Positions 493 through 14,953 of a stretch of DNA of 15,756 nucleotides are shown piece after piece. Made by a program: the position numbers and the translations under genes. The stretch covers positions 1-15,756 of the forward strand of contig JAPYVP010000010.1 in NCBI GenBank assembly GCA_028276785.1, written 5' to 3'. The stretch's first letter is position 1. Every line of letters starts with the position of its first letter. Source of the stretch: Candidatus Nanopusillus sp. (GTDB taxonomy: Archaea > Nanobdellota > Nanobdellia > Nanobdellales > Nanobdellaceae). The notes beneath the pieces were generated by a model. The model ran no database searches, was not told the origin of the DNA, and worked only from the letters and a program-made list of their open reading frames with translations.

Positions 493-915
493 TTAGATAG
501 ATGCCGATGGTGATCCTCTGTAGCCTGGCATTGAAACTGCATTTACTACTTGAAATATTAATGCTATTACAACTACTGAAATTACTAATATAACTACCAT
601 TGGTAAGACGTTTAATAAGAATACAAATGCTTGTCCTGTTGCTGTAATACCTTGATATGTTTCAGTATATTCTGTGCTAACTAATTGTGCTAATGTATTT
701 TGTGCTTGACTAATTGAGTTTTGTACTGCTGTGTTATTTGCATATGTTTGGCTTATTTGGTTCAATTGCTGTAATCCTAATGCATACTGTTGTGCTGTTA
801 ATGGCAATACTGTTGTACCAAATGCTCCTGTTATTACTATACCCAATACTGATAATAGGCCCAATACTAAAATTGCTAAACCCAATTGTACTAGTGCATA
901 TGCCCATGGCTCCAT
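493..915 (-). CDS. two-helix hydrophobic virion-type protein resembling spindle-shaped-virus major capsid proteins (SSV1 VP1/VP3-like)
   Basis: 140 aa. It has an N-terminal TM helix (LVQLGLAILVLGLLSVLGIVI), a Q/N/T/S-rich middle of about 55 aa with an NNT sequon, and a C-terminal TM helix. The segment TGQAFVFLLNVLPMVVILVISVVVIAL recalls SSV1 VP1 ...TNATLLNLVPLFYILVLIIVPAVVA; that sequence is recalled from memory, not searched. A TTTAAAAA box on the minus strand (946..939) lies 31 nt upstream of the ATG. Confidence 0.7.
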   Translation of the reverse strand: MEPWAYALVQLGLAILVLGLLSVLGIVITGAFGTTVLPLTAQQYALGLQQLNQISQTYANNTAVQNSISQAQNTLAQLVSTEYTETYQGITATGQAFVFLLNVLPMVVILVISVVVIALIFQVVNAVSMPGYRGSPSASI

Positions 916-995
916 AACTTTTATAAATTTATTCCTCCTTTTTAAACTTTTTAATGGTTATAACTTATATATTATTACTTAAATCTTACTAAAAA

Positions 996-1442
996 TTATT
1001 GTGAAAATAAATATTTTTTGAATACTTTTATTATTTGATCATAAATTTCCTCCATATCCTTAATCGAATCTCCTATTAGCTCCATGCTAGCAACTGTCTT
1101 CTCTATTTCTCTGATTCTATCTAACTCTTTTCTTTTGTTATCTTTTTTACTTTTGTTTTCTTTAGTCTCTTCATCTTCATTAGAATTTTCTTTTTTATCA
1201 TCTTCTTCATTGGAATTCTCTTTTTTATTATCATCCTCATTAGAATTTTCTTTTTTATCATCTTCCTGTTTTTTGTATAAGCTAATAATAAGATAACAAT
1301 CTTCTAATAAAATCAATAGTTTATTCTTTAATAGATCTATATCATCATTAGTAGCCCTTAATTTAGCTCTAGCAAATGAGAGTTGAAAATCTAATAGATG
1401 TGCTAAAAAAACATTCTTTAACTGTTGATCTATATATACCAT
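996..1442 (-). CDS. hypothetical acidic/lysine-rich protein with a 10-aa tandem repeat (DDKKENSNE-type)
   Basis: 148-aa ORF. Helical N- and C-terminal parts flank three copies of a (E/D)DDKKENSNE repeat encoded by a 3 x 30-nt tandem repeat. Only 13 nt separate it from the upstream gene's stop, so it is probably in an operon. Confidence 0.7.
   Translation of the reverse strand: MVYIDQQLKNVFLAHLLDFQLSFARAKLRATNDDIDLLKNKLLILLEDCYLIISLYKKQEDDKKENSNEDDNKKENSNEEDDKKENSNEDEETKENKSKKDNKRKELDRIREIEKTVASMELIGDSIKDMEEIYDQIIKVFKKYLFSQ
1178..1267 (-). repeat. 3 x 30-bp in-frame tandem repeat inside the 996..1442 CDS
   Basis: Units at 1178-1207, 1208-1237 and 1238-1267 read cattagaattttcttttttatcatcttctt / cattggaattctcttttttattatcatcct / cattagaattttcttttttatcatcttcct. 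They differ at only a few positions. Confidence 0.9.
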
Positions 1443-1455
1443 TTTAACTTATTAC

Positions 1456-2387: not shown

Positions 2388-2390
2388 ATA

Positions 2391-2420
2391 TTTATATATA
2401 GGTGATAACATATATATAAA
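2391..2420. promoter_or_regulatory. interleaved divergent promoter pair: perfect inverted repeat TTTATATATA-N10-TATATATAAA
   Basis: Bases 2391-2400 and 2411-2420 are exact reverse complements. Each arm lies 33 nt upstream of the ATG it faces (2424 on plus, 2387 on minus). Confidence 0.55.
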
Positions 2421-2423
2421 TAT

Positions 2424-2741
2424 ATGGGTCAGGTATTAATAGATATTACCGTACCTGTGGCACCGGCAAGTAGAAAATTTATACATCATATATATGCAGG
2501 AGTAGGCTCTGCAGTACCTGAAATTACAAAATATTTTAAAAGAGATTTTGCTAAAATGACTAAGGAATTAAGTACTAAAATTACAGAAAGAGTTAAACCT
2601 GGTAGTTATATTAAGGGACAAATCATTTTAGAATATGATGATAATACAAAAAAGCCGCTTAAAATGTTTACAAAAGAATTAATAATTTATGATTCAGGTA
2701 ATGTATATAATTACCCAATAATTGTAGAAAATAACAAGTAA
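2424..2741 (+). CDS. hypothetical small protein, paralog of 8104..8415
   Basis: 105 aa. It aligns colinearly with the 103-aa product of 8104..8415. Shared motifs are PV.P..R.FI..(I/V)Y near the N-terminus and DDNTK.P.K(M/L)(F/Y)T near the C-terminus. It is the divergent partner of the 1884..2387 operon. Confidence 0.7.
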   Translation: MGQVLIDITVPVAPASRKFIHHIYAGVGSAVPEITKYFKRDFAKMTKELSTKITERVKPGSYIKGQIILEYDDNTKKPLKMFTKELIIYDSGNVYNYPIIVENNK

Positions 2742-2743
2742 GC

Positions 2744-3592
2744 TTAACCTAATGGATTAGTTACATGATAAGTCGCATTTGCTGAATATATACCATTTAT
2801 TGGTAATGTTATATTAGTTAGATTAGTCTGATTTAGGAAAGTTACATAATGGATATTGCTTAAAGTTGATGCAAATGTTCTTAAGAATAGGAATGCTATT
2901 ATGAAGATTGTTCCAATTAATATAAGATATAATATAGATCTAACTTGCTCCATTGATTTTGGCATGAAAAATCCTAATAACTTTAATATACCAGACTTAT
3001 TACTATTTGGTATTGCTTCCTCTAAATCTATTTCCTTATAAGATTGCATAATATCTACTAAATCATATAAAATACCTTTCGGATTACCTGTAAAGTTCTT
3101 TATTTTTTTATTTTCTAATTCTTTGACCTTTATTGGTATTCCTCTAGAATCCCTTAACAAATCTATTATTTTTAGTAATTGATTTGGTTGAGTATTTTCT
3201 AGATATTTCAAAATCCACTGTATAGCTACAAAATAATAGATCTCAATATCTGAAGCATTTTCTAAATCTTCAATATTGGGAATCAATGATTTAGGTACTT
3301 TTTCTTTCATTAATGGTAAACCATAATATACTAAAATAGCTTTAACTTTACCCTCAGATCCATTATATTCTATAGTCCATTCATCTACAAAATTATCAAA
3401 AATAGATAACAGAAATCTGTCTGCCTGTCTAATATAGGCAAAAGGTGGACGATATTGTATTAAATATATTATATTGTCCTTAAAGGGAAAATTTACTTTC
3501 TTTGGTTTATTATTGTTGTTGCTTTTGAGTGGGAACCACATTTGAAGGTGGAAGTGATGGATAATTTTGCCTTGTAGTATTATATATGCCAC
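2744..3592 (-). CDS. hypothetical protein with a C-terminal TM anchor and a sequon-rich tail (alternative start at 3541)
   Basis: 282-aa ORF. The first 83 nt overlap the upstream gene, and the internal ATG at 3541 (MWFPLKS...) shortens that overlap. A TM helix (ILYLILIGTIFIIAFLFL) is followed by the tail FLNQTNLTNITLPINGIYSANATYHVTNPLG, which carries four N-x-S/T sequons. Confidence 0.65.
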   Translation of the reverse strand: MAYIILQGKIIHHFHLQMWFPLKSNNNNKPKKVNFPFKDNIIYLIQYRPPFAYIRQADRFLLSIFDNFVDEWTIEYNGSEGKVKAILVYYGLPLMKEKVPKSLIPNIEDLENASDIEIYYFVAIQWILKYLENTQPNQLLKIIDLLRDSRGIPIKVKELENKKIKNFTGNPKGILYDLVDIMQSYKEIDLEEAIPNSNKSGILKLLGFFMPKSMEQVRSILYLILIGTIFIIAFLFLRTFASTLSNIHYVTFLNQTNLTNITLPINGIYSANATYHVTNPLG

Positions 3593-3971
3593 TTGCTACT
3601 GAATCATAACTCATTAATAAGGAACTTATTATTGAACTATAGTAAATAATTAGCTCTTTAGCCATCTCTTTTGTAGGTTCATCTGTAATTCTACCAGATT
3701 CTAATAACATTTGTAAAGTTACTAAATATCTATGAAGCCTCTCAGTTACCTTATTTATCTTAAAAATTACTTTTGCTTGTCTCTCATCATTAGCTATATA
3801 TTGTTTAGAGAAAGTTTCTTTAATAGTTTTAGACATAGGATAATCAAATGGATTTACCTCAAAAATTTCAAATAATCTTTTCCTAGAAGTTGCTTTTTCA
3901 ATTTCTCTTAAAGTAAATTCTTCTACTTTTTTAATTACATCTTCATTTTCCTCTTTGTTTTCCTCAGCCAT
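3510..3971 (-). CDS. hypothetical protein
   Basis: 153-aa ORF with an acidic N-terminus (MAEENKEENED). It forms a TAATG junction with the upstream gene at 3969..3973. Confidence 0.7.
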   Translation of the reverse strand: MAEENKEENEDVIKKVEEFTLREIEKATSRKRLFEIFEVNPFDYPMSKTIKETFSKQYIANDERQAKVIFKINKVTERLHRYLVTLQMLLESGRITDEPTKEMAKELIIYYSSIISSLLMSYDSVASGIYNTTRQNYPSLPPSNVVPTQKQQQ

Positions 3972-4276
3972 TAAATTAAAAACTTAAATGCAGGTAATAT
4001 TAAGCCTATAACTATTCCAGTAAAAGCAAATAAAGCTAATACAATAGCATAAACTCTTATTATAGCATATTCGTTATAATACTCTGCTCTTGTAACAACA
4101 TGAGCTACTATTATTATTGCAAATATAGATGCAATCATAAGAGGTACCCCTATTAAAGGAGTTACTACTAATGAATAAGCTATCATTGCTAAAGCTCCTT
4201 TTATAGAGAATCCTAATATGAGAGACCATATTAGTGCAAATACCAAAAACCTTTTTGATAGCAAGTCATTCATCAT
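3971..4276 (-). CDS. small polytopic membrane protein
   Basis: 101 aa, almost entirely hydrophobic, with about 3 predicted TM helices by eye. Confidence 0.75.
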   Translation of the reverse strand: MMNDLLSKRFLVFALIWSLILGFSIKGALAMIAYSLVVTPLIGVPLMIASIFAIIIVAHVVTRAEYYNEYAIIRVYAIVLALFAFTGIVIGLILPAFKFLI

Positions 4277-4300
4277 TATAATTTATATGTAATAACCTAT

Positions 4301-4741
4301 TTATATGTTTTGCTTTTCTTTTATATATGCCCCTATATAATATATTAAGAATATTGCATTTAGTATAACTAAAGCAATAGCAAAAAATGCAATATCCTGA
4401 TTAATTCCTGTAACTAATGTCATTACATCTAATAACTCGCTGTATATATTTAAATCATTCAAAACTGAAGCATAAATATACTGCAATGTTGATAGATAGT
4501 TAATTAAAGAATTAGTAATAAAAGGGATTAATGCAGAAAAGACGGCATTTAAGAAAAATAATAAAGATTTAGTTCTATGAGATAACTTTAAAGCTAAAAT
4601 TATTGAGAAAAATATTAGGGGTGCAATTGTTAATAAAATAAATATAAAAGGATACATATTTATAAAAGCTATACTATTAGGACTTATCATTATGTTTACT
4701 GTATAGTTAAAGGTTTGATTATATAGATAAGGTAAACCCAT
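4301..4741 (-). CDS. polytopic membrane protein
   Basis: 146 aa with about 4 hydrophobic helices. A minus-strand T/A box lies about 29 nt upstream of the ATG at 4741. Confidence 0.75.
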   Translation of the reverse strand: MGLPYLYNQTFNYTVNIMISPNSIAFINMYPFIFILLTIAPLIFFSIILALKLSHRTKSLLFFLNAVFSALIPFITNSLINYLSTLQYIYASVLNDLNIYSELLDVMTLVTGINQDIAFFAIALVILNAIFLIYYIGAYIKEKQNI

Positions 4742-4940
4742 AAATTATATATTATTATTCTACTTAAAAATTTTATAAGATCAAAAACAATATATTTATT
4801 ATGGCAAAGAAAAAAGAACAAAAACAAGAAGAACATCAATCAAAGAAATAAAGCTTAACTATTTATAGGTAATGGGGTCCGTAGGTAAAAGGAGAAATTA
4901 GATAGGAAGATAAAGGCCCGATACTTTCTTTTTTGTTTTT

Positions 4941-5249
4941 TTAGAGGTGACTAAGATTTATATAAAAGAGTAGGATAATAGCTATAATAGCAATATATTT
5001 TATTAGGCTCCACTTTGTAAAAGTTTTAAATAATAATCCCAAAGGTATTGGGATGAGTCCTGCTATAATAAACCATAAAAATAAGTTTCCTGTGGGATAA
5101 ATAATTAAGAAAATAATTAAATTAACAAAAAATGCAGTAAGACCTTCTTTAATACTTTTTGGAGTTACAAAAAACCTATAAATTCCGAGCCCAAATAAAC
5201 TATATAAAACTATAGTTATTAAGATATAGCTAAAAGAATAAAAGTCCAT
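4941..5249 (-). CDS. small polytopic membrane protein
   Basis: 102 aa with about 3 hydrophobic helices. Its ATG overlaps the stop of the small upstream ORF (TAATG at 5247..5251). Confidence 0.75.
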   Translation of the reverse strand: MDFYSFSYILITIVLYSLFGLGIYRFFVTPKSIKEGLTAFFVNLIIFLIIYPTGNLFLWFIIAGLIPIPLGLLFKTFTKWSLIKYIAIIAIILLFYINLSHL

Positions 5250-5395
5250 TAGTGGTTTTCTCTATCTTCTCTTATAGATCTTTCAGAAAAACCTTTCTTA
5301 CTTAGTTTGATAGTTTTTAATAGCTTAATCCATTTATTTACATACTCTTTAGCTTTAATATTCATATCTCTTCTCTCTTTCAATGGTTGTTCCAT
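5249..5395 (-). CDS. small basic hypothetical protein (48 aa, MEQPLKERRDMNIKAKEYVNKWIKLLKTIKLSKKGFSERSIREDRENH)
   Basis: It falls below the ORF-track size cut-off and I translated it by hand. It fills the gap between 5420..5608 and 4941..5249 on the same strand, and its stop overlaps the next ATG. Confidence 0.45.
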   Translation of the reverse strand: MEQPLKERRDMNIKAKEYVNKWIKLLKTIKLSKKGFSERSIREDRENH

Positions 5396-5419
5396 CTGAG
5401 TATGTTACTGTTTCTTTTA

Positions 5420-5608
5420 TTATTTTTCTAACTTTCTTAGGTTTAAGCTCATGTAATTTGTCCAATTGATAGGATAGGTATCTGGTAAATCTTCTTGAAA
5501 TATTTTTTGTTTAAGTTTATTTGCTTCTTCAGATAATTCAGAAAGTACTTTATCTAATTCTTTAAGAGCCTCTTCAATCATTGGTCTTCCATTTTTACTT
5601 TCTTCCAT
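5420..5608 (-). CDS. small coiled-coil hypothetical protein
   Basis: 62-aa ORF. Its start lies 1 nt after the upstream gene's stop. Confidence 0.6.
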   Translation of the reverse strand: MEESKNGRPMIEEALKELDKVLSELSEEANKLKQKIFQEDLPDTYPINWTNYMSLNLRKLEK

Positions 5609-5609
5609 A

Positions 5610-5765
5610 TTATCTATGTCTTGATCTACGTTTATAAGTTTTTGGCATTCTATAATTATTATACGATCTAAAACCTCTCGGCACTATAACATATGATAAA
5701 AGTAGAGCAACAAAGGAACCCATCATTAACATGAAAAGTATTGTTAATACTGTAAAGAAGCTCAT
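5610..5765 (-). CDS. single-pass membrane peptide with a basic tail (ORF is open to 5858; start at 5765 preferred)
   Basis: The product is MSFFTVLTILFMLMMGSFVALLLSYVIVPRGFRSYNNYRMPKTYKRRSRHR. A TTTATAAA box (5788-5795) lies 30 nt upstream of the ATG at 5765. The extra 31 N-terminal codons of the long ORF are simply the tandem-repeated promoter DNA. Confidence 0.6.
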   Translation of the reverse strand: MSFFTVLTILFMLMMGSFVALLLSYVIVPRGFRSYNNYRMPKTYKRRSRHR

Positions 5766-5786
5766 CTTATAAATTATAGTCTTAAA

Positions 5787-5847
5787 TTTTATAAAAATGG
5801 TATCACAGCTAAGAAATTTTTTTATAAAAATAGTATTATAGCTAAGA
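5787..5847. repeat. 2 x 28-bp direct repeat at a 33-bp period, each copy carrying a TTTATAAA box
   Basis: TTTTATAAAAATGGTATCACAGCTAAGA (5787-5814) matches TTTTATAAAAATAGTATTATAGCTAAGA (5820-5847) at 25 of 28 positions. The repeat sits in the divergent region between ATG 5765 (minus) and ATG 5877 (plus). Confidence 0.85.
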
Positions 5848-5876
5848 TTTTTATACATCGCAATTAAATATATATT

Positions 5877-6044
5877 ATGGATACAAATATAGAGAATGCA
5901 CTTAATAGGTTAACAAAACATGCAGAAAGCTTAAAAGATATAAAAGACCTTTTAGAATTATATAATGAATTAAAAGATTTAGAATTAAGAGTTAAAATAT
6001 TAAAAGACATGGTCGCAAAGGCTCTGATGAATAATAGAAATTAA
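5877..6044 (+). CDS. small coiled-coil hypothetical protein (55 aa, MDTNIENALNRLTKHAESLKDIKDLLELYNELKDLELRVKILKDMVAKALMNNRN)
   Basis: Translated by hand because it falls below the track cut-off. It has heptad-like composition and is followed by a hairpin plus T7 run. Confidence 0.5.
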   Translation: MDTNIENALNRLTKHAESLKDIKDLLELYNELKDLELRVKILKDMVAKALMNNRN

Positions 6045-6063
6045 AGATTTCTGCCCTTTGGGG

Positions 6064-6107
6064 CCTATGGGCAAAAAATTATGCCATTACCATAGGGAGG
6101 TTTTTTT
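6064..6107 (+). terminator. hairpin (CCTATGG ... CCATAGG) followed by a T7 run
   Basis: A 7-bp stem pairs 6064-6070 with 6090-6096. The sequence then reads GAGG and TTTTTTT (6101-6107). Oligo-T is the usual archaeal termination signal. Confidence 0.4.
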
Positions 6108-6181
6108 AACTGGTTTCTTAACCAAAAAATTCTGCCCCTAGTAGGGGAATATAATCCTGCCATTATAATATCCCTTAAATC

Positions 6182-6189
6182 TTTAAAAA
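6182..6189 (+). promoter_or_regulatory. TATA-like box for the 6211 operon
   Basis: TTTAAAAA lies 29 nt upstream of the ATG at 6211. Confidence 0.5.
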
Positions 6190-6210
6190 ACTAAAAACAA
6201 TTATAAATAT

Positions 6211-7068
6211 ATGTTTGAAGGTGACTATTATATTGATGTAGGAATTGATAATAATGATTTTAAACTAATCTTAAATGATAACTCAGGAAATATAATTAAA
6301 GTATTTGATAATACTCCAGAAATAGTTAATCAAGCATGGAGAGAATTAGCTCAACTAATTGATAATTATGATCTAATGATTTATGGTAGAGTAAAGATGT
6401 ATAAAGATGGGGATTATATCTTTGATCTATTTAAAAGATATGCATTTATTATATTTATAGAACAGAATGCTTCTTATTTAGCCAGTTTAGATGGTTATAG
6501 AATAAAATACCCAAACTTTACTTATTACATTGCTACACTATATAAACTTTATAAAGCATTTGTTAATCCAAAAACTACTTTAAGTCCTCAAGAATTTATT
6601 TTAATTATTAATCCTTTATTAACTAAAATAAGACCAAACCTTTCCGGACAAGAACTAATTAAATTATTTGACACCTTTGCAATGAATTATTATAAAGCAA
6701 TAGATTATATAAATAAAGAACGTTTAGGTCTTAATAAGGTTATGATTGCAGCTGAAAGACCAATAAATGAAGAACCTAGTACATTAATTACACAACCTAA
6801 TGAAATGGCTATTAGACCAGCTCCATCAATTAATCAACCAAATGCAATAACAGCTTCAGCCCAACCAATGCCTTCTTCACAAAATCCAGGACCACTACCA
6901 ATGAATAATCCACCACAGGTAGTACCTCAAAGACCTCCAGAAATAGTTCAACCAAAAGAAGAAATAACCAAACCAATAGAAGAGAACAAACCAGTTCCAA
7001 CAGAAGAGGCAAATATTAGAAACATTAAAATAGAGCATAGAAGACTTAAATATTCTGAAAATGGATAG
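6211..7068 (+). CDS. hypothetical protein with a Pro/Gln/Asn-rich C-terminal region
   Basis: 285 aa. A globular N-terminal part of about 180 aa is followed by a low-complexity region (PAPSINQPNAITASAQPMPSSQNPGPLPMNNPPQVVPQRPPEIVQPKEE). It overlaps the integrase start by 8 nt (ATGGATAG). Confidence 0.75.
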   Translation: MFEGDYYIDVGIDNNDFKLILNDNSGNIIKVFDNTPEIVNQAWRELAQLIDNYDLMIYGRVKMYKDGDYIFDLFKRYAFIIFIEQNASYLASLDGYRIKYPNFTYYIATLYKLYKAFVNPKTTLSPQEFILIINPLLTKIRPNLSGQELIKLFDTFAMNYYKAIDYINKERLGLNKVMIAAERPINEEPSTLITQPNEMAIRPAPSINQPNAITASAQPMPSSQNPGPLPMNNPPQVVPQRPPEIVQPKEEITKPIEENKPVPTEEANIRNIKIEHRRLKYSENG

Positions 7069-7642
7069 AATACCCAGACATTGGGTAAAATTTATAGGTG
7101 GAAGACCCCCAACTTTTGAAGAACTATATCATATAATTAGATCTAATTTAGAAGAATATTATAATTTAGTAAGATTGCCAAACCCAAAAAGATCTTACAT
7201 TAAAAGGCTTATGTATTATGCTGTAGCTTATTTACAAATAACTAATGGATTGAGAGCTTCTGAAGCCATTTTTGCTATGAAAGAATTCTTAACAAAGGGT
7301 AATAAGAAATTCCAAATATTAGCTGAAAAATCTAATAAAAAAAGATGGGTTATTGTAGCTGAACCTTTAGCATCAATGGCTCCAGTGCTAAAAACTTACT
7401 TAGATACTTTAAAGAATATTAATAGAGGAAATTATAAGGAATTCCTTAGATATAATATGGGAATTAACCCACATACATTAAGATATGTATTTATATCTAA
7501 AGCTGTTAAAAAGGTTGGCGCAGAAGATACTATGGTATATATGGGCTATAAAGACTTTAGACATATGATGGAATATTATAGAACTATAAGATCTGAAGAA
7601 CTATTAGAAGAATTTATAAATAAAATCATAAATATTGAATAA
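7061..7642 (+). CDS. int: short tyrosine recombinase / integrase (catalytic domain only)
   Basis: 193 aa. It has the Arg-I context TNGLRASEA (R65), the H-x-x-R motif HTLRY (H138, R141), and a C-terminal MGYKDFRHMMEYY with candidate nucleophile Tyr172/173. The usual His/Trp position appears to be Tyr163. Motifs were read by eye. Confidence 0.75.
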   Translation: MDRIPRHWVKFIGGRPPTFEELYHIIRSNLEEYYNLVRLPNPKRSYIKRLMYYAVAYLQITNGLRASEAIFAMKEFLTKGNKKFQILAEKSNKKRWVIVAEPLASMAPVLKTYLDTLKNINRGNYKEFLRYNMGINPHTLRYVFISKAVKKVGAEDTMVYMGYKDFRHMMEYYRTIRSEELLEEFINKIINIE

Positions 7643-8098
7643 ATGGGTCTATTATCTAAGCTAAAAGAAATATTGCCAAAAAGTACAAAAAATTCTAGTT
7701 ATCTAATTTTTAAAGAAATTATCACTGCAGGAGGAGAAGATGTGCTTGTTATATCTATTTATACTCTAAATTTTAAGAAGGCTTTAAACAAACTTTTAGA
7801 AGATCAATATGCTCAAATACTCTGGAATGATATTAAAGAAAAATATAGAAAAAAATTAGATGAACAAAAGTTATACAAAGTTTTTGAATTCTTTATATTT
7901 GCACTTTATATGGAAACTCTTTTAGAAGATATAAAAAGAGAATTATCGGTGTTAGGTTCATTAAGTAATGAAAGAGGATACTTTCTTTATCGAGATCCTG
8001 AACTTTTTAATGGAGATCTAGATGAAGAAACATTTAAAAAATTCCTAGAAAAAATATGGAATTATTTCTATAATGAATTTTATAAAAAGATACATTAA
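7643..8098 (+). CDS. hypothetical protein
   Basis: 151-aa ORF that starts immediately after the integrase stop. No family recognised. Confidence 0.7.
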   Translation: MGLLSKLKEILPKSTKNSSYLIFKEIITAGGEDVLVISIYTLNFKKALNKLLEDQYAQILWNDIKEKYRKKLDEQKLYKVFEFFIFALYMETLLEDIKRELSVLGSLSNERGYFLYRDPELFNGDLDEETFKKFLEKIWNYFYNEFYKKIH

Positions 8099-8103
8099 GA
8101 AGC

Positions 8104-8415
8104 TTAAGAAATTTCTACACTTATCTTTTCAGCCAATTCTTTTTCTATATTCCATACCTTAAGGTTTATAGTATATAACTTTTTAGGTTCTTTTGTATTA
8201 TCATCTACTAATAATGCAAGTACTCCTGACACCATCTTTCCATTTCCTATTACTTCCTCTATTTTATAACCCATTCTTTGTATTAGCTTTGTTATTTCTT
8301 TCTTATATTTTTCTGTTAGCTCTTTATCCTTTGCTGCTATTGCTCCATATACATTTGTAATAAAACTCCTACCTGTTGGATTTACGGGCCTTAATAATTC
8401 TATAGATATTTCCAT
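8104..8415 (-). CDS. hypothetical small protein, paralog of 2424..2741
   Basis: 103 aa, colinear with the 105-aa product of 2424..2741 (see that entry). Its ATG lies 30 nt from the shared TATA box at 8438-8445. Confidence 0.7.
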   Translation of the reverse strand: MEISIELLRPVNPTGRSFITNVYGAIAAKDKELTEKYKKEITKLIQRMGYKIEEVIGNGKMVSGVLALLVDDNTKEPKKLYTINLKVWNIEKELAEKISVEIS

Positions 8416-8421
8416 AATATA

Positions 8422-8436
8422 GTTATAAGTTATAAC
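8422..8436. promoter_or_regulatory. 15-bp palindrome GTTATAAGTTATAAC (candidate operator)
   Basis: The 7-bp arms GTTATAA and TTATAAC flank a single central base. The palindrome lies between the shared TATA box and the ATG at 8415. Confidence 0.45.
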
Positions 8437-8437
8437 A

Positions 8438-8445
8438 TTTATAAA
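8438..8445. promoter_or_regulatory. single palindromic TATA box TTTATAAA shared by two divergent genes
   Basis: The box lies 29 nt from ATG 8467 (plus) and 30 nt from ATG 8415 (minus). The whole intergenic region is only 51 bp. Confidence 0.55.
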
Positions 8446-8466
8446 ATTTAAATAAACTAAAAGACA

Positions 8467-9036
8467 ATGGTAAAATGGCAGATAACAAATATAAATACTG
8501 TAGTCTATTTTAATGTCCCTATTAAATTAGGGCCTTTGGCAGATAAAATATGCAAAGATTATGTTATAAGTTATCATCCTAAAGATTTTCCTGGATTAGT
8601 TATTTACCTTGATAAATTTAGGATAAATATCTTTAGAACAGGATCAATAACTATTACTGGAATAAAAAAAGTTGAGGATTTAACTTCTTCTGTTGATGAA
8701 GTAAGAAATTTATTAAAAAAGTATAATGTTAATTTACCAGAAAAATATAAACTAGAAATAGTAACCAGCTCAATAATTGGAAAATTTGATTATGATAAAA
8801 TAGACATTGAAAGGATGGGTATTGAATTGGAGAATGCTATATATGATCCTGAAAGATTCTCAGCAGCTATTGTTTATTATAATATTTCCCCAAACTACAA
8901 AGTATCTTTTAATATCTTTAAAAATGGTACTTTTGTTGGTGCTGGTTTCAAAAGTGAGCCAAACATACTTATCCAGCATATAGATCAGATAGTAAATTCT
9001 TTTCAAGAGAATATAGTTAAAAAGTATGCTAAATAA
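8467..9036 (+). CDS. tbp: divergent TATA-binding protein (two TBP repeats)
   Basis: 189 aa. Repeat 1 reads ITNINTVVYFNVPIKLGPLADKICKDYVISYHPKDFPGLVIYLDKFRINIFRTGSITITGIKKVED. Repeat 2 reads LEIVTSSIIGKFDYDKIDIERMGIELENAIYDPERFSAAIVYYNISPNYKVSFNIFKNGTFVGAGFKSEPN. Both follow the archaeal TBP pattern I.N.V......L......(Y)eP(E).FPG(L)......(L)IF.SGK...TG.KS.E, but repeat 2 has lost FPG. Confidence 0.85.
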   Translation: MVKWQITNINTVVYFNVPIKLGPLADKICKDYVISYHPKDFPGLVIYLDKFRINIFRTGSITITGIKKVEDLTSSVDEVRNLLKKYNVNLPEKYKLEIVTSSIIGKFDYDKIDIERMGIELENAIYDPERFSAAIVYYNISPNYKVSFNIFKNGTFVGAGFKSEPNILIQHIDQIVNSFQENIVKKYAK

Positions 9037-9081
9037 TTTCTGCCTTAAAATTTATATATAAGATAAAGTATAATAATTATT

Positions 9082-9603
9082 ATGGTGTATATGGATATGT
9101 TCAATAGAGAAGATATTTTTAATAGGAGCTTATATCCACCATATACAAATATAGTAAGGGAAATAAGAGATAGGTCTATCTATGCCCCTATAAGAAACAA
9201 ACTTGAAAAATTAAGGCAACTTGTCAGAAAAACATATAAAATAGTACATGATTTAAGAGTAGAGTATCGTAATGCAGATATTGAAGTAATAGCTAGTATG
9301 ATACTTAGAATTAAATATATTGCTGAAGAAATGGAAGATCTTATTGATGAAATCTTAAAAGAGATAATGCCATCTGGTAAAGATAGTGAAACATTTAGAT
9401 ATTACTTAAATAGAATTTTATATGAAGTAATTTATAATATAGATAATGATACAGGTGCTCTTATATTTAATATAGAACATGGAGATGAATATGGTATAGA
9501 TTATGATCAATTTGAAGATGAATTAGTTAAATTTTTAGATGGTACAGAAAGAGCTCTCAAAGAAGTAGACGCTACTATAGATAGAATTCTTAGAAGTATA
9601 TAA
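9082..9603 (+). CDS. hypothetical helical protein
   Basis: 173-aa ORF. A TTTATATA box (9051-9058) lies 31 nt upstream of the ATG at 9082. Alternative ATGs are at 9091 and 9097. Confidence 0.7.
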   Translation: MVYMDMFNREDIFNRSLYPPYTNIVREIRDRSIYAPIRNKLEKLRQLVRKTYKIVHDLRVEYRNADIEVIASMILRIKYIAEEMEDLIDEILKEIMPSGKDSETFRYYLNRILYEVIYNIDNDTGALIFNIEHGDEYGIDYDQFEDELVKFLDGTERALKEVDATIDRILRSI

Positions 9604-9611
9604 TCTTTTTT

Positions 9612-9920
9612 ATGAATAAATTTTATCGAAAGGGCTATTATTATGAAAGAAAGGTCAAGCAATTTCTGATATCAAAAAATTATTTGGTTTGGCGTTCTCC
9701 AGGTTCTAAATCTCCAGTAGATATTATTGCAATAGATGATAAAGGTTATGTAAAATTAATTCAGGTTAAAAGCCATAAAAATATAAAGAAAGAAGAATTA
9801 GAAACCCTTAAAGAATTAGCAAAAAAGTATGAAAATGTGCCTAATGTTGAAGTAGAACTCTGGATCTTTGATAAAAAGCAGAAAATAATATACAATAAAA
9901 AAGCCCTTTTAAATTTATGA
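9612..9920 (+). CDS. hjc: Hjc-like Holliday junction resolvase-fold (PD-(D/E)xK) nuclease
   Basis: 102 aa. RKGYYYERKVKQFLISKNYLVWRSPGSKSPVDIIAIDDKGYVKLIQVKSHK parallels Sulfolobus Hjc RKGSAVERNIVSRLRDKGFAVVRAPASG...PDIIALKNGVIILIEMKSRK (recalled from memory). E12, D37 and K53 are present, but the E of the ExK motif is Gln51. Confidence 0.7.
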   Translation: MNKFYRKGYYYERKVKQFLISKNYLVWRSPGSKSPVDIIAIDDKGYVKLIQVKSHKNIKKEELETLKELAKKYENVPNVEVELWIFDKKQKIIYNKKALLNL

Positions 9921-9942
9921 AAAGTAAAACTAATACTTATAT

Positions 9943-10560
9943 ATGGAAACTGATGAAGAACTCTTTATAAATCCATGGGAACCTAATGCTAGTAGAGTCA
10001 TAGATAGTTTAACAAGAAAATATCTTATAGCTTATGATAAATTAGAAAGATTAGCTAAAACTTCAGGAGTTGTACAAGCAAAAACAGTTCAAGATACTTT
10101 AATGGAAATATTTAGATGGGAGTTAATTGCAAGATTTAAAATACCTTTTATGGTTGATGGACAAAATGCAGTAACTTTATATAATCCACTCATTTACAAA
10201 ATGTGGGGTTATGTACCATTTGTCGGTGGTGTTGCAAGTAAATTCTTACAAAATAGCCTATTCTTAATATTTGATAAATTTAAGTATGATACAGAACCAT
10301 TTGATGATGCTTATTATTTTAAAGTAGTTGATTTTATGAAAAAATTAGCAGATTATAAAGATAATATTAATAAATCTTACTTGAGGGCCTTTTTATTTAA
10401 CAATACAATAGTATACCTTGAATATAAAACAACATTCATGTTTGGAGAAAAGGGAAACTACTTTGTATACTTTAAACCATTAGAACCTAGAGAAGATGAA
10501 GTTAGAAATGCAATGGTTGATCTATATTATGCAGTCTCTGATCTTGCAAGAAAAGATTAA
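9943..10560 (+). CDS. hypothetical protein
   Basis: 205-aa ORF, the last gene of the plus-strand block. No family recognised. Confidence 0.7.
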   Translation: METDEELFINPWEPNASRVIDSLTRKYLIAYDKLERLAKTSGVVQAKTVQDTLMEIFRWELIARFKIPFMVDGQNAVTLYNPLIYKMWGYVPFVGGVASKFLQNSLFLIFDKFKYDTEPFDDAYYFKVVDFMKKLADYKDNINKSYLRAFLFNNTIVYLEYKTTFMFGEKGNYFVYFKPLEPREDEVRNAMVDLYYAVSDLARKD

Positions 10561-10561
10561 T

Positions 10562-10729
10562 CTATATATTTAAAAGTATTTTTAATAGTGCTAGCACATC
10601 TAGAACAACTATAATTCCAGCTAAATATTTTATTATTTCATTTGAAAATAAATTTAGGTTCCAAATTAGAGCTAATTCCACTAAGGTACCCCCAACTACT
10701 ATTAAACTTGTAATTATCCTAGAGTCCAC
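10562..10729 (-). CDS. possible 55-aa two-helix membrane peptide with a GTG start
   Basis: The hand translation is (V/M)DSRIITSLIVVGGTLVELALIWNLNLFSNEIIKYLAGIIVVLDVLALLKILLNI. It has no ATG and only an in-frame GTG after an upstream TAA, so the call is weak. Confidence 0.3.
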   Translation of the reverse strand: MDSRIITSLIVVGGTLVELALIWNLNLFSNEIIKYLAGIIVVLDVLALLKILLNI

Positions 10730-10780
10730 ATATAATAATTGCCGTTATTTTTTTAAAGTTTTATATAAAAGAATTAGTAT

Positions 10781-11305
10781 ATGAAATTACAATTAGTAGA
10801 AAGATATCTTAATGAAAATATTCCAAATTTTCTAAAAAAATCTTTAGCTGCACATTATAAAGACGTTCTTACCTTTAGTGAGGCTGTACCTTCACTTTAT
10901 ATTAAATATTTAGCTTATCATGCTATCGCATATTTTCAATACTTAAACAGTTTTGGGGTTAATGATGCAATAAAACTTTATAAAGAATATATAAACTCTA
11001 ACGGTAAAATAACAACTTTTAAGTATAATAGTTTTGAGATACCTTTAAAATTTGATGATCTTTTAAAAAGTGTAAGCCAAACACTAATTCAATATAAAGA
11101 GATAGTACAAAGTATTAAAGAAAGAGAGTATATTTTACATTTTAGGTATGAACATAATCTAATAGCTTCATATATAACTATTTATAATTTAATAAAAGCT
11201 TTTAAAAAGATAGGGCTTGAAGGTATTGTATCATTAAAAAAGCATTGGAGGCTGATTGATATAGTATTTATCCCTTATTTATTAAAGGAAAATGGACAAA
11301 GATAA
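10781..11305 (+). CDS. integrase-like paralog lacking the catalytic arginines (degenerate tyrosine-recombinase fold)
   Basis: 174 aa. AIAYFQYLNSFGVNDAIKLYKEY aligns with the integrase segment AVAYLQITNGLRASEAIFAMKEF, placing Gly at the R65 position. HNLIASY...KAFKKIG aligns with HTLRYVF..KAVKKVG, placing Ile at the R141 position. It shares IAYFQY, EIPLK.D, SL(K/R)KHW and PYLLK with 13460..13975. A T/A box at 10750-10757 lies 31 nt upstream of the ATG. Confidence 0.65.
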   Translation: MKLQLVERYLNENIPNFLKKSLAAHYKDVLTFSEAVPSLYIKYLAYHAIAYFQYLNSFGVNDAIKLYKEYINSNGKITTFKYNSFEIPLKFDDLLKSVSQTLIQYKEIVQSIKEREYILHFRYEHNLIASYITIYNLIKAFKKIGLEGIVSLKKHWRLIDIVFIPYLLKENGQR

Positions 11306-11891
11306 TATGAACAATACTTTAAATATGATAAATCAAATATTGGGATATCAAGATTATACAAACATAGAGAAGGCTATCTTAACATTATTATACCTTTATA
11401 ATGATAAAGTAGATGTTTATAGATTACATAAGATGGTTTTTTTAGCTTCTTTAGATATTCCCGAATTAAGAGAAGAACTTGATCCGAGGCCATCTATGTA
11501 TAAAGGTATATTTTATGATGAAAATATAGCTGAAGCAATTGAATCTTTAAAATTTGATGGCTTAATAGAGGGGGATACTTTTTTACAGTTATCCTCAAAG
11601 GGAAAGGCCCTCCCATTTCTGTTATCTGATAAAGAAAAAGATATTTATAATGAAGTTGTAGATTTATTTAAGGATACAACTGATGATGAAATCCTTGCAA
11701 TATTCTATTATAAACTATATGACCAAATAAAAATATTAAAACCATTAAAAAGGATCGAAAGCAATAGAAAGAAATTAGCTCTAAGTTTATATCAAAAAGG
11801 AAAAATCTCTATTGAAGCTGCTTCAGAGATTGCTGGTATGAATATAAAAGATTTTATGGAAATGCTAAAGAAAAAGAAATTACTTTCCTAA
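11292..11891 (+). CDS. fusion of a YwgA/SocA(Panacea)-like winged-helix region and a C-terminal UPF0175-type HTH antitoxin domain
   Basis: 199 aa. YRLHKMVFLAS...YKGIFYDENIAEAIESLKFDGLIEG resembles the YwgA/DUF4065 pattern RLQK(L/M)V(Y/F)(L/I)A...YGPYSeeL...IeeL...G(L/F)(I/L). The C-terminus RKKLALSLYQKGKISIEAASEIAGMNIKDFMEMLKKKK resembles the UPF0175 consensus (LA..LY..GK(L/I)S.G.AAE.AGM....F.E.L). It overlaps the upstream gene by 14 nt; an alternative ATG is at 11307. Confidence 0.6.
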   Translation: MDKDNMNNTLNMINQILGYQDYTNIEKAILTLLYLYNDKVDVYRLHKMVFLASLDIPELREELDPRPSMYKGIFYDENIAEAIESLKFDGLIEGDTFLQLSSKGKALPFLLSDKEKDIYNEVVDLFKDTTDDEILAIFYYKLYDQIKILKPLKRIESNRKKLALSLYQKGKISIEAASEIAGMNIKDFMEMLKKKKLLS

Positions 11892-11895
11892 AAAA

Positions 11896-12057
11896 TTATT
11901 GAGCTACTTTTGTCTTAACAAATACATACACTGTTCCTTTACAATATGGACATGTGCCTTTTATAGCTTTCTTTCCATTCTTTAAAGTAACTTCTTGTGG
12001 ATTTTCAACGTTTACTTTTTTCTTACATTTAACACAATATGCCATATATTGCTCCAT
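11896..12057 (-). CDS. small zinc-ribbon protein (DUF5679-like)
   Basis: The hand translation is 53 aa: MEQYMAYCVKCKKKVNVENPQEVTLKNGKKAIKGTCPYCKGTVYVFVKTKVAQ. The CxxC...CxxC spacing and the flanking residues match the DUF5679 pattern AYCVKCK.K.....P..VT.KNG.....G.CP.CG(T)K(V/M). It is below the track cut-off. Confidence 0.6.
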   Translation of the reverse strand: MEQYMAYCVKCKKKVNVENPQEVTLKNGKKAIKGTCPYCKGTVYVFVKTKVAQ

Positions 12058-12121
12058 CAATAATATATATTGCCCCTATTTATAAACTTTTTGAATTATG
12101 CCGCATAACTTAAAGGGCAAA

Positions 12122-12129
12122 TTTATAAA
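12122..12129 (+). promoter_or_regulatory. TATA box upstream of tnpB
   Basis: TTTATAAA lies 30 nt upstream of the ATG at 12152. A second box at 12079-12086 lies further upstream. Confidence 0.45.
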
Positions 12130-12151
12130 TCTTGAATATATAAATAAAAAC

Positions 12152-13330
12152 ATGAGTAGGGGGAAGGGTAAGCTAATGATTGCATATAAATTTAGGGCTT
12201 ATCCTACCCCCGAACAAGAGAAAAAGCTTCATGAAATTTTTGCTACTGAAGCTAAAATCTATAATGAAATGATTAAGAAAGCTAATGAGATGAATACGCA
12301 TGACTTAAAAACTGTTGAAAAGACTTTAAGACAAATAATTCATGATTTAGAAAGCTTATGGAAAGGTAAGATATATTCTATGGTTATATATCCTATTGAA
12401 GAGAAATTACTTTATAACTTAAAAGGTTTAGCTCGATTAAAGAAAAAAGGTAAAAAAGTTGGTTCTCTAAAACCAAAAGAAAAGTTTACTTTCTTATTTT
12501 ATAGACATCATGGGTTTAGATTAGATATTGATGGAGTTGAACTATCTAAATTGGGAAAAATAAAAGTACTCTTTCATAGACCCATAGAAGGAAAAATAAA
12601 AGGGGTTGGAATAAAATTAGATAAAGATAATAAATGGTATGTTTATATTGTATCTGAAATAACTCCAAAACCCTTACCTAAAACTGGTAAGGTTGTTGCT
12701 ATTGATTGGGGCATTGAAAAACTTTTAACTACTTCTGATGGTATTGCTATACAAAACCCTTTAATATTAGATAAATTAGAAGAGAGGATTAAAAGATTAC
12801 AAAAAGCTTTATCAAGAAAAAAGAAAGGCTCTAAAAATTATGAAAAAACCAGAGTTAGATTAGCAAAACTTTATAAGTATGCAAAAAACTTAATTAATGA
12901 TTATTTACATAAGGTTACTACATGGTTAGTTAAAAATTATGATGTAATATATGTAGAAAATATAAGGGTTGAAAAATTAATACAAACAAATAAAGCTAAA
13001 AAGTTAAGGAGGCATATTTTACAAGCTAATTACTTTAAGTTTTTGGAGCTTTTAGAGTATAAAGCTAAATTGTATGGTAAACAGGTTATAAAAGTCTCAC
13101 CTAAAAATACATCTAAAAAATGTTCTAGATGTGGCTATGTTAATCAAAAGTTATCTCTAAATGATAGAATATTTAAATGTCCTAAATGTGGTTTAGAAAT
13201 TGATAGAGACTATAATGCTGCTCTAAATATCTTAAATGCGGGGCTGGGGCAGCCCAAAGCGCCTGTGGAGGGGAAACCTCTGCTGTACATCTCCTTCTCT
13301 GAGGGGGTGTACAGCAAGTTTCCCGGATGA
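12152..13330 (+). CDS. tnpB: TnpB (OrfB) RNA-guided endonuclease, IS200/IS605 family
   Basis: It has the typical N-terminus MIAYKFRAYPTPEQEKKL (that ATG is at 12176; the ORF is open from 12098). The RuvC motifs are VVAIDWGIEK (D), VIYVENIRV (E) and EIDRDYNAALNI (D). The zinc finger is CSRCGYV...CPKCGLE. The start at 12152 is chosen on TATA spacing, and 12176 is equally plausible. Confidence 0.9.
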   Translation: MSRGKGKLMIAYKFRAYPTPEQEKKLHEIFATEAKIYNEMIKKANEMNTHDLKTVEKTLRQIIHDLESLWKGKIYSMVIYPIEEKLLYNLKGLARLKKKGKKVGSLKPKEKFTFLFYRHHGFRLDIDGVELSKLGKIKVLFHRPIEGKIKGVGIKLDKDNKWYVYIVSEITPKPLPKTGKVVAIDWGIEKLLTTSDGIAIQNPLILDKLEERIKRLQKALSRKKKGSKNYEKTRVRLAKLYKYAKNLINDYLHKVTTWLVKNYDVIYVENIRVEKLIQTNKAKKLRRHILQANYFKFLELLEYKAKLYGKQVIKVSPKNTSKKCSRCGYVNQKLSLNDRIFKCPKCGLEIDRDYNAALNILNAGLGQPKAPVEGKPLLYISFSEGVYSKFPG

Positions 13331-13425
13331 AGCAGGAAACATGTGGTAAGCCTGGAAAGGGCTTACCTAAATAGGAGAAAAGCAGTAAAGCAGAAAAGCA
13401 GAGAGAAAGGCCCACTTCTGTGAGC
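13235..13425 (+). ncRNA. putative TnpB omega RNA (reRNA) scaffold overlapping the tnpB 3' end
   Basis: This is a G+C-rich island with consecutive plus-strand stems. GGGCTG/CAGCCC pairs 13241-46 with 13250-55. GAGG/CCTC pairs 13268-71 with 13277-80. CTGTACA/TGTACAG pairs 13283-89 with 13308-14. GGTAAGCC/GGCTTACC pairs 13345-52 with 13360-67. Known TnpB omega RNAs overlap the 3' end of tnpB and the right end of the element. The exact ends are unknown. Confidence 0.6.
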
Positions 13426-13430
13426 TTTCT

Positions 13431-13438
13431 TTTATAAA
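13431..13438 (+). promoter_or_regulatory. TATA box for 13460..13975
   Basis: TTTATAAA lies 29 nt upstream of the ATG at 13460. It is part of the recurring 13-14-mer TTTATAAACTTTT(T), also found at 12079 and 14773. Confidence 0.5.
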
Positions 13439-13459
13439 CTTTTTCTAAATATTTATTTT

Positions 13460-13975
13460 ATGAAATTAAAGCTAGATCCTAAAATTTTAAACATGCCTCT
13501 TGAAGATAAAATAAAAGATGCTTTAAAAGATGCTAAAAATATAGAAGATAAGATTTATCTTTCCATAGCATATTTTCAATATATAAATAAGCTCAGTACT
13601 AACAAAGCTATTAGATTATTTAAGGAACTCTTATTATCCGATGGGCAGAAATTAGGTTATCCCTTTTCGATTTATTATGCACAAGATAATAAACTTTTAA
13701 TAAGAAAAATAGAGATACCATTAAAAATTGACGAATTTTTGGCAAATTATATTAATGAAATTAAAAACTATAAGAGTTTAATAAGTAAAGTAACTAAAAG
13801 CACATATAATAAATATTTAAGAAAGTATTTAAATATAAAATCTTCAGATATTTTAGCTTATATAATATATAAAATGATTGAAGAGATAGGTATACACACT
13901 TTAATATCTTTAAGAAAACATTGGGCTTTATTCAGTAGGAATCTACTACCTTATTTATTAAAAAATAAGACTTAA
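13460..13975 (+). CDS. integrase-like paralog lacking the catalytic arginines (second copy)
   Basis: 171 aa. SIAYFQYINKLSTNKAIRLFKEL aligns with the integrase segment AVAYLQITNGLRASEAIFAMKEF, placing Ser at the R65 position. It has no H-x-x-R equivalent (SSDILAY). It shares EIPLKID, SLRKHW and PYLLK with 10781..11305. Confidence 0.65.
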   Translation: MKLKLDPKILNMPLEDKIKDALKDAKNIEDKIYLSIAYFQYINKLSTNKAIRLFKELLLSDGQKLGYPFSIYYAQDNKLLIRKIEIPLKIDEFLANYINEIKNYKSLISKVTKSTYNKYLRKYLNIKSSDILAYIIYKMIEEIGIHTLISLRKHWALFSRNLLPYLLKNKT

Positions 13976-14529
13976 TTTTGAAAAAATTTGCTTATTTCTG
14001 TAGAAAAGTTTACAAAAGCCCTTTTTACTACATATTGATTTGATCTAAATGTTACATCCTCTATAATTTTAAAGAATTTTTCAAATAATTCCCGATCAAA
14101 TAAAACCTTTTGATATTGGTCTGGTAAAACAATATCTGGATCATTATCTTTTAAATATAAAGCTATTTGATATGCAATATCAATATATTTAGTTTTTATT
14201 AATATTGCTTCCATAAGTGGTACACTATCTAAGCCCTTTTTAAATATATAGTCTACATATAATTTAACTTTAAGCAAAAATAGAAATGCTATAAAATTGC
14301 TAAACTCTTTACTATCCTTATTCTTTAAATCATTTAACAGAGGCTCTATTAATCTCTTTAAGCCCTTACTCGCATTAGCTTTAATCTCACTAAAACTCAA
14401 TGCTCTTATAGGATTTGCATTTTCTAAAGATCTTATATACGCTATGTAATCTTTGGCTTCTAGGGAATTCTTACCCTCTTTTATTATATATAGATTATCT
14501 GTTAATTTGCCAATTACTGCAAACCCCAT
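13972..14529 (-). CDS. hypothetical protein, paralog of 14954..15553
   Basis: 185 aa. With the 199-aa neighbour it shares an N-terminal MG....(L).(N/D).L.I...G and the central motifs F..F(L/F)(L)L(I/L)K(L/V) and (V/I)AY(N/Q)(L/I)A.Y(F/L).D. A TTTATAAA box (14553-14560) lies 31 nt upstream of the ATG at 14529. Confidence 0.7.
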   Translation of the reverse strand: MGFAVIGKLTDNLYIIKEGKNSLEAKDYIAYIRSLENANPIRALSFSEIKANASKGLKRLIEPLLNDLKNKDSKEFSNFIAFLFLLKVKLYVDYIFKKGLDSVPLMEAILIKTKYIDIAYQIALYLKDNDPDIVLPDQYQKVLFDRELFEKFFKIIEDVTFRSNQYVVKRAFVNFSTEISKFFQN

Positions 14530-14552
14530 ATATAATATAATGTAAGCATATA

Positions 14553-14560
14553 TTTATAAA
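14553..14560 (-). promoter_or_regulatory. TATA box for 13972..14529
   Basis: A palindromic TTTATAAA lies 31 nt upstream of the minus-strand ATG at 14529. Confidence 0.5.
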
Positions 14561-14921: not shown

Positions 14922-14953
14922 AATAAAAATATTGCTTTTCATATTTATAAATA

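Follow-up and report, generated by a model that had tools for sequence, protein, structure and literature searches.

Why would a mobile element of a nanoarchaeon carry its own gene for a TATA-binding protein (TBP), and for whose benefit would this protein work? The question is raised by a gene at 8467..9036 (+ strand), with an ATG start and 189 codons before the stop, in contig JAPYVP010000010.1 of Candidatus Nanopusillus sp. The stretch analyzed, hereafter the window, comprises positions 1 to 15,756 of this contig and has a GC content of 26% throughout. A first, sequence-only reading of the window had assigned the gene to a mobile element, had described its product as a divergent TBP with an eroded second repeat, and had suggested that this TBP could redirect or insulate transcription initiation in favour of the element. 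Our analysis identifies the element as a virus related to Nanoarchaeotal virus 1 (NAV1), and the protein as a TBP whose DNA-contact face is remodelled in both repeats. We propose, with a probability of about 0.48, that it works together with transcription factor B (TFB) and the RNA polymerase of the host as an initiation factor under viral control.

The protein and the virus that encodes it

Two TBP repeats can be read in the translation. Repeat 1 (aa 1-94; 8467..8748, + strand) contains the motifs DFPGLV (aa 40-45) and IFRTGSITITG (aa 55-65), and repeat 2 (aa 95-189 plus stop; 8749..9036, + strand) contains FSAAIV (aa 131-136) and FKNGTFVGAG (aa 151-160), all four as the sequence-only reading had quoted them. 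The Pfam search that it had proposed was clearly significant: the TBP family PF00352 matched the whole protein in two stretches (E = 1.7e-23, 82.7 bits), and the halves scanned separately, aa 1-94 and aa 95-189, scored 54.8 and 32.1 bits, so that each half alone exceeded the gathering cut-off (22.9 bits). Among the sequences of the PDB, phmmer ranked archaeal TBPs first, namely 1mp9 of Sulfolobus acidocaldarius (E = 8e-15), then 1ais (E = 4e-13) and 1pcz of Pyrococcus woesei and 2z8u of Methanocaldococcus jannaschii.

The structural comparison agreed. An AlphaFold2 model computed from an 18-sequence alignment of the viral family reached a mean predicted local distance difference test (pLDDT) of 95.6 and a predicted template modelling score (pTM) of 0.86. 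Its topology is S1-H1-S2-S3-S4-S5-H2, duplicated, which is the order of the TBP saddle. Foldseek aligned the model with 1mp9 (template modelling score, TM, 0.82) and 1ais (TM 0.76), and the top 44 PDB matches were all TBPs. We have very little doubt that the window gene encodes a genuine, complete two-repeat TBP and that this TBP is viral.

A TBP-like fold also occurs in rolling-circle replication initiators of the Rep_trans and Rep-Arvir type, some of which are found in archaeal viruses (PMC13107129), and the viral family has invariant tyrosines (Y36, Y94, Y109, Y126, Y138) of the sort that could invite such an assignment. The chance that the protein is an initiator of this type is practically nil. 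Rep_trans and Rep-Arvir (PF02486; DUF7845 with a winged helix-turn-helix, wHTH) were rejected because PF00352 was the sole Pfam family found at E ≤ 10. The window TBP nests within cellular TBPs, it is a bare 189-aa saddle without a wHTH or additional C-terminal domains, and the PDB structural matches with E < 1e-8 are all TBPs.

As for the element, 26 of the 30 window open reading frames (ORFs) matched the NAV1-like contig L001 by tblastn, in the same order and orientation and with 46-91% identity; the other four had no NAV1 match. A protein search with the window TBP returned no more than 18 relatives, among them P0008 (66% identical), which carries the annotation 'TATA binding protein of transcription factor TFIID [Nanoarchaeotal virus 1]'. 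The contigs that bear P0008, including GenBank MN056826 (35,629 bp; L002), share the gene order of the window, with synteny across L001-L004. Given this collinearity with NAV1, the mobile element is a NAV1-related virus of Nanoarchaeota, and the window represents a viral lineage different from NAV1 itself (MN056826). The placement of the TBP gene on a mobile element, among integrase, resolvase and ORFan genes, was thereby confirmed, the integrase match being weak (E = 0.004).

Neither tRNA genes nor a host-like flank were found in the 15.7-kb window, and an Rfam scan of the window gave no match. Megablast of the whole window against phage and plasmid collections also gave no match, nor did tblastn of the window TBP against the same phage collection, from which NAV1 itself is apparently absent. 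A scan of IMG/VR with the alignment of the viral TBP family found no member.

Probable capture from the host lineage

Searched with a profile, 1.84 billion representative proteins yielded 3,390 TBP matches, the best outside the viral family being P0021 (E = 1e-43). This protein shares 100% identity with the TBP encoded by a Candidatus Nanopusillus sp. metagenome-assembled genome (MAG), and it is also identical to the TBP of locus L007. Its gene has a PF00133 class-I aminoacyl-tRNA synthetase gene on one side and, on the other, genes coding for a proteasome subunit and for a beta-CASP/KH nuclease, and the arrangement of ORF sizes around the TBP gene of MAG KM4331 matches this locus. In a scan of species genomes with TBPs of the Nanopusillaceae type, the TBPs of other MAGs of this family were 50-54% identical to P0021. 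The Nanopusillaceae thus carry their own TBP in a conserved housekeeping locus, and the window gene is not the only TBP of the host, a point on which the sequence-only reading had made its case depend.

These cellular TBPs (Candidatus Nanopusillus sp. CTOTU25739; MAGs KM4331, DRC67 and GMQS18) are the closest cellular relatives of the viral protein and probably represent its donor lineage. A neighbour-joining tree (own implementation, 200 bootstraps; a simple method applied to long branches) united the viral TBPs in one clade with 98.5% bootstrap support, grouped them with the Nanopusillaceae TBPs at 96.5%, and placed them as sister to KM4331 at 95%. This grouping is backed by shared indels and motifs in the alignment, and the indels argue against an artefact of long-branch attraction. 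Viral and Nanopusillaceae TBPs have in common W4, one extra residue that creates GKFDY, two extra residues behind FPAVIVPY, and the C-terminal FQExVIKKY; a five-residue segment before helix H2' is shared by the viral TBPs with KM4331 only. The viral protein also has an extra three-residue insertion ahead of stirrup 1 in comparison with the Nanopusillaceae TBPs, to the named representatives of which it is 37-42% identical. Since the viral clade is nested inside the Nanopusillaceae TBPs, an old capture from the Nanopusillaceae host lineage, followed by long divergence, is indicated as the most economical reading of the alignment and the tree. The phylogeny that the sequence-only reading had called for therefore points to a long-diverged lineage.

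Could the gene nevertheless be an ordinary housekeeping TBP on a piece of host chromosome? The GC content (26%) and the TATA box match those of Nanopusillaceae contigs, and the closest cellular TBPs come from that family. However, all 15.7 kb are collinear with NAV1, the host TBPs stand in a different, conserved locus with the low identity given above, and when 185,579 species genomes were scanned with the viral TBP, no relative turned up. This reading is very improbable and effectively refuted.

The gene is also not peculiar to NAV1 and its nearest relatives. Distant members of the viral TBP family, 43-48% identical in the 18-sequence alignment, sit in other viral neighbourhoods. In L068, the TBP gene adjoins a BrxL-like ATPase gene, of a kind also carried by NAV1, and in L069 it adjoins genes for Hjc and a DUF5679 protein. 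These different neighbourhoods indicate that the TBP gene is conserved across a wider group of nanoarchaeal viruses. The ratio of nonsynonymous to synonymous substitution rates (dN/dS, omega) of the viral-lineage TBPs is 0.19-0.27 overall, and the gene is maintained by purifying selection in at least three viral subclades with different neighbourhoods.

Promoters, DNA-contact face and the role of the viral TBP

The TBP gene appears to have its own canonical promoter. The palindromic TATA box TTTATAAA (8438..8445) lies 29 nt 5' of its ATG, in the middle of a 51-bp intergenic spacer, and at the same time 30 nt 5' of a divergent gene for a 103-aa protein. The spacer is conserved in NAV1, and its TTTATAAA box is invariant in six related contigs, including the NAV1-like L001. 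Boxes of this kind are frequent in the window, where TTTATAWA has 54 matches against 22 ± 5.6 expected. It starts 29-33 nt 5' of the ATG in 7 of 29 window genes, and 26 nt 5' in an eighth. Leaderless archaeal transcripts usually show this spacing of TATA box and ATG. The sequence-only reading had seen the same box at nearly every promoter; the box is indeed enriched and present at many genes that lead transcription units, but these eight genes fall well short of nearly all.

The claim that repeat 2 has decayed asymmetrically was not supported. The Pfam scores of repeat 2 and repeat 1 stand in the same ratio in the virus (32.1/54.8 bits) as in two hosts (50.2/85.9 and 51.9/79.6 bits). FSAAIV and FKNGTFVGAG had been taken as signs of decay, but Nanopusillaceae TBPs themselves contain FPAV..PY and F-x-NG-x-F, and the host sequence of KM4331, ESFPAVIVPYEVEPNYKIKFNIFKNGRFVCSGIK, already bears these features. 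FSAAIV itself is a local variant, most members of the viral family having FPAV at this place in the 18-sequence alignment. Compared with the TBP of KM4331, repeat 2 is 49.5% identical and repeat 1 only 34.1%, and the dN/dS of the viral lineage is 0.10-0.23 in repeat 2 against 0.28-0.42 in repeat 1. Within the viral family, repeat 2 is thus the more constrained half of the protein.

In the proposed mechanism, the viral TBP gene would first be expressed by the TBP, TFB and RNA polymerase of the host. The viral TBP would then bind and bend TATA boxes and engage host TFB and RNA polymerase, and would in this way act as an initiation factor controlled by the virus. The benefit could be an extra TBP capacity for the many viral genome copies present in a genome-reduced host, or an altered affinity or kinetics of DNA binding that favours viral templates. 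In function, it would come closest to a phage sigma factor or to an alternative paralogue of TBP. That a TBP encoded by the element acts for the element is plausible.

Several observations speak against this proposal, among them the state of the DNA-contact face. The viral family was aligned to yeast TBP, the sequence of which was checked to be identical to the 1ytb chain, and 18 positions were followed that face DNA in the crystal structures of yeast and Arabidopsis TBP with DNA, including N69, V71, R105, L114, K120, V122 and T124 of yeast and their counterparts in repeat 2. Counted by conservative residue classes, 11 of these 18 positions are changed in the window TBP, whereas the alignment shows no deviation at all in 23 of its 31 cellular TBPs, yeast included. 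The changes are balanced between the repeats (five of nine positions in repeat 1 and six of nine in repeat 2). In yeast numbering, with the viral residue in brackets, they are V71N (N10), R105Y (Y47), L114N (N54), K120S (S60) and V122T (T62) in repeat 1, and N159T (T100), V161S (S102), R196N (N139), L205N (N149), K211T (T155) and T215A (A159) in repeat 2. All four hydrophobic minor-groove contacts are lost (V71N, L114N, V161S and L205N). Repeat 2 has also lost its central Asn (N159T), and four basic residues that contact phosphate are gone (R105Y, K120S, R196N and K211T). In yeast TBP, substitutions at several of these positions weaken TATA binding. On the side facing TFB, where yeast TBP contacts TFIIB through E186, E188 and L189, the counterpart of E188 is E129, a position that can be E, D, N, A or G within the viral family, and the Q of archaeal TBPs is replaced by R at position 130. 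The protein also stays below the cut-offs of the NCBIfam TBP models (NF001592 and related), which span 181-347 bits; it scores 82.4 bits at best against a cut-off of 270 bits. The host TBP P0021 likewise falls under this cut-off (132 against 270 bits).

The promoters add a further difficulty. TTTATAAA is found at -30/-31 in 5 of 25 genes of host Nanopusillaceae contigs and in 16 of 66 genes of viral contigs, and distant viral subclades with more canonical TBPs likewise have it at about -30. We saw neither a virus-specific variant of the TATA box or B recognition element (BRE) nor a co-variation of box and TBP subclade, in a host sample that is small (25 genes). As host and virus share the box, and as it does not change across TBP subclades, there is no sign of a dedicated class of promoters. 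The idea that the element redirects or insulates transcription through a box of its own is not upheld, since host contigs use the same TTTATAAA at the same distance.

The Nanopusillaceae host TBPs (L007-L010), encoded in their housekeeping locus, are unusual too; they deviate at 1-5 of the 18 DNA-face positions, as against 11 in the window TBP, for example with L205 replaced by N or T and K211 by N.

Other parts of the interface have been kept. The four Phe residues that kink DNA are present (F41, F56, F131 and F151; yeast F99, F116, F190 and F207). In the 18-sequence alignment, F56, F131 and F151 are invariant and the F41 position is F or Y; P0020, the most distant relative, alone has L at the position of F131. 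Repeat 1 has kept its central Asn and Thr as well, and V213 is likewise retained. Also, each S4-S5 turn has a basic residue three positions earlier than the usual one (R57 in IFRTGS and K152 in IFKNGT, that is IF[RK]xG, against IFSSGK), and R57 and K152 may take over the phosphate contact of the lost SGK lysines. In the C-terminal stirrup (Y126-D127-P128-E129-R130-F131), neither Y126 nor D127 varies in the 18-sequence alignment, and P128 hardly does. Most of the 11 replacements are identical in all ten members of the window subclade, and distant viral subclades are intermediate, with 5-9 DNA-face deviations. The retention of the kinking Phe, together with the fixation of the replacements, suggests a surface that has been re-selected and not a loss of function. 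The trait specific to the virus is a remodelled DNA-contact face in both repeats.

The main rival of an initiation factor is a host shut-off factor or decoy. Such a protein would sit on TATA boxes, or tie up the TFB or TBP of the host, while no productive pre-initiation complex arises, and would damp host transcription or time that of the virus. The heavily remodelled DNA face, with its four basic and its hydrophobic contacts gone, would be expected of it, as would the relaxed E188 position and the change of Q to R at position 130; nor does any virus-specific promoter motif demand a special TBP. Known transcription factors of archaeal viruses are mostly repressors (PMC5569661). On the other hand, the kinking Phe are conserved and the replacement residues are fixed at an omega of about 0.2, which argues that a specific interaction with DNA is maintained. 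Moreover, viral promoters carry the host-type box, so that an indiscriminate blocker would hit the virus too. We regard a shut-off factor as a real but minority possibility.

A further reading starts from the same surface. The kinking Phe and the fixed polar residues (Asn, Ser, Thr and Tyr) could together constitute a new mode of promoter-DNA recognition, used for private initiation or for a block of the host on the same TTTATAAA boxes. This is a doubtful proposition.

It is unlikely that the protein is an architectural DNA-bending protein with a task outside transcription, at a replication origin, in integration or recombination, or in packaging. The gene lies within the replication and recombination half of the genome, in a module with Hjc, an integrase-like protein and TnpB, and an altered DNA face with kinking residues kept would suit such a task. 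Proteins with a TBP fold serve DNA replication elsewhere, as in the above-mentioned Rep_trans and Rep-Arvir (PMC13107129). However, the C-terminal stirrup, which contacts TFB, is conserved (Y126-D127-P128), no origin-like repeats were found beside the gene save one short conserved element, and neighbourhood is weak evidence in a 35-kb virus. For these readings as for the initiation factor that we favour, the argument is drawn from sequence and predicted structure.

Other genes of the window and other TBPs on mobile elements

The gene that shares the TATA box with TBP (8104..8415, - strand; NAV1 locus tag NV1_02) adjoins the TBP gene in L001-L004, L065 and L066. Its 103-aa product is 65-69% identical to the products of chromosomal genes of Candidatus Nanopusillus acidilobi (Nps_01465, in a cellular context, L101) and of many Nanopusillus MAGs. 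It is thus, beside TBP, a second gene common to host and virus. Its AlphaFold2 model has a pLDDT of 94, and the best PDB match was weak (ThermoDBP-RP1, 4psl; E = 0.15, TM 0.52). A paralogue is encoded at 2424..2741 (+ strand); the two proteins are about 103-105 aa long and 31% identical, and each gene forms a divergent pair with a further gene.

In the stretch from the TATA box to the 103-aa gene lies a conserved element, ATATAGTTATAAGTTATAAC (8417..8436), which is almost unchanged between the window and L001, while the flanking proteins are just 66-71% identical. This element may be an operator, that is, a binding site for a regulator. Together with an ATATA(A)G lead-in, the palindrome GTTATAAC is present at just two places of the window, one in this spacer and the other at 951..964, 5' of the gene at 493..915.

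Two further genes near TBP differ from NAV1. Between the 173-aa gene at 9082..9603 (+ strand), just 3' of TBP, and the 170-aa gene of NAV1 at the equivalent position, no similarity could be detected. The 151-aa gene at 7643..8098 (+ strand) has no tblastn match in NAV1, where no gene is called at that position. These two places appear to be variable slots on either side of a conserved TBP block.

Few other window proteins could be named. An Hjc-type Holliday junction resolvase is encoded at 9612..9920 (+ strand; PF01870, E = 3.9e-8; NF040854, E = 1.3e-7, below the cut-off), and a putative small tyrosine recombinase of 193 aa at 7061..7642 (+ strand; PF00589, E = 0.004, below the cut-off), the NAV1 counterpart of which is 82% identical. 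A TnpB of the IS605 OrfB type is encoded at 12098..13330 (+ strand; PF07282, E = 6e-27; PF01385, E = 2.5e-24). As it is 81% identical and syntenic in the NAV1-like L001, TnpB looks like a fixed resident gene and not like a recent insertion; the GC-richer stretch 3' of it matched no Rfam family. The window also encodes a UPF0175 domain protein. Apart from these and TBP, no window protein had a Pfam match.

The putative 193-aa recombinase has two paralogues, of 174 aa (10781..11305, + strand) and 171 aa (13460..13975, + strand), the three proteins being mutually 26-30% identical. Only the 193-aa copy matches Phage_integrase, at the E value given above, with a GLRxSE/HxxR-like pattern recognized by eye, and the two shorter proteins may be inactive derivatives. 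Finally, an acidic low-complexity protein (996..1442, - strand) has a 30-nt tandem repeat of 3.6 copies in its gene (1156..1262), coding for KKENSNE(D/E)D units; the NAV1 counterpart is only 46% identical.

The TBP of NAV1 (MN056826; BFVD/UniProt A0A5P9U4S6) is the orthologue of the window TBP. It has the same length of 189 aa, it is 66% identical, the predicted structures superpose with a TM of 0.95, and its gene occupies the same slot, with the 103-aa gene on one side and the Hjc module on the other, and has an identical palindromic TATA box. It was the only close match in BFVD; the named matches that followed were TBP-like proteins of eukaryotic large DNA viruses. No functional analysis of NAV1 TBP was found in the literature checked, which did not include the paper describing NAV1, and a search for discussion of archaeal viral TBPs gave nothing relevant.

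Annotated TBP genes are also found in the cultured haloarchaeal tailed viruses HRTV-9 (gp39; L103 2989..3528) and HJTV-2 (gp41; L104 2971..3585) of the Hafunaviridae. These viruses belong to an unrelated realm (Caudoviricetes) and acquired TBP independently. Archaeal virus-borne TBPs are therefore not unique to the NAV1 lineage. The paper describing HRTV-9 and HJTV-2 does not mention their TBP genes. Unlike in the nanoarchaeal family, repeat 2 of these TBPs is fully canonical and the divergence lies mainly in repeat 1, not over the whole DNA face; the two Phe positions of repeat 1 are G and A in HJTV-2, and Y and Y in HRTV-9.

Forty-one haloarchaeal plasmid records carry a TBP, 26-35% identical to that of the window. 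These plasmids, such as the Halobacterium megaplasmids, are large replicons that cannot be mobilized and belong to cells rich in TBP and TFB paralogues, in contrast to the 35-kb virus of a genome-reduced symbiont. The multiple TBP and TFB paralogues of haloarchaea have been proposed to give alternative promoter selection. Among eukaryotic viruses, the Nucleocytoviricota encode TBP-like proteins with a divergent TBP fold (BFVD), which are 8-20% identical to the window TBP and usually longer. They work with a virus-encoded RNA polymerase, whereas no RNA polymerase gene was found in the NAV1-like virus sequence examined.

With a generic TBP alignment, IMG/VR yielded 30 contigs, most of them very large. 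The one looked at, L071, has a canonical TBP (5998..6546, 137 bits) near genes for a phage tail tube and a type IIG restriction-modification enzyme.

The existence of a viral TBP is thus not new, being annotated in NAV1 and in two haloarchaeal tailed viruses, and TBP genes on archaeal mobile elements are a known, little-studied kind. The case is still of interest because archaeal viruses, which carry no RNA polymerase, are presumed to rely on the TBP and TFB of the host (PMC5569661). A TBP kept under selection across a family of nanoarchaeal viruses suggests that these viruses intervene where promoter recognition begins. The protein is small, its structure is predicted with high confidence, and it differs from canonical TBPs at exactly the positions of DNA contact, which makes it directly testable by what route an archaeal virus takes over the transcription of its host. 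The extent of change that the TBP-DNA interface tolerates without loss of DNA kinking is a second question that can be tested with it. If the reading as a new mode of promoter recognition were true, this would be the first archaeal case in which a virus takes over transcription through a general initiation factor, and it would amount to a natural experiment on how the TBP-DNA interface can be re-engineered.

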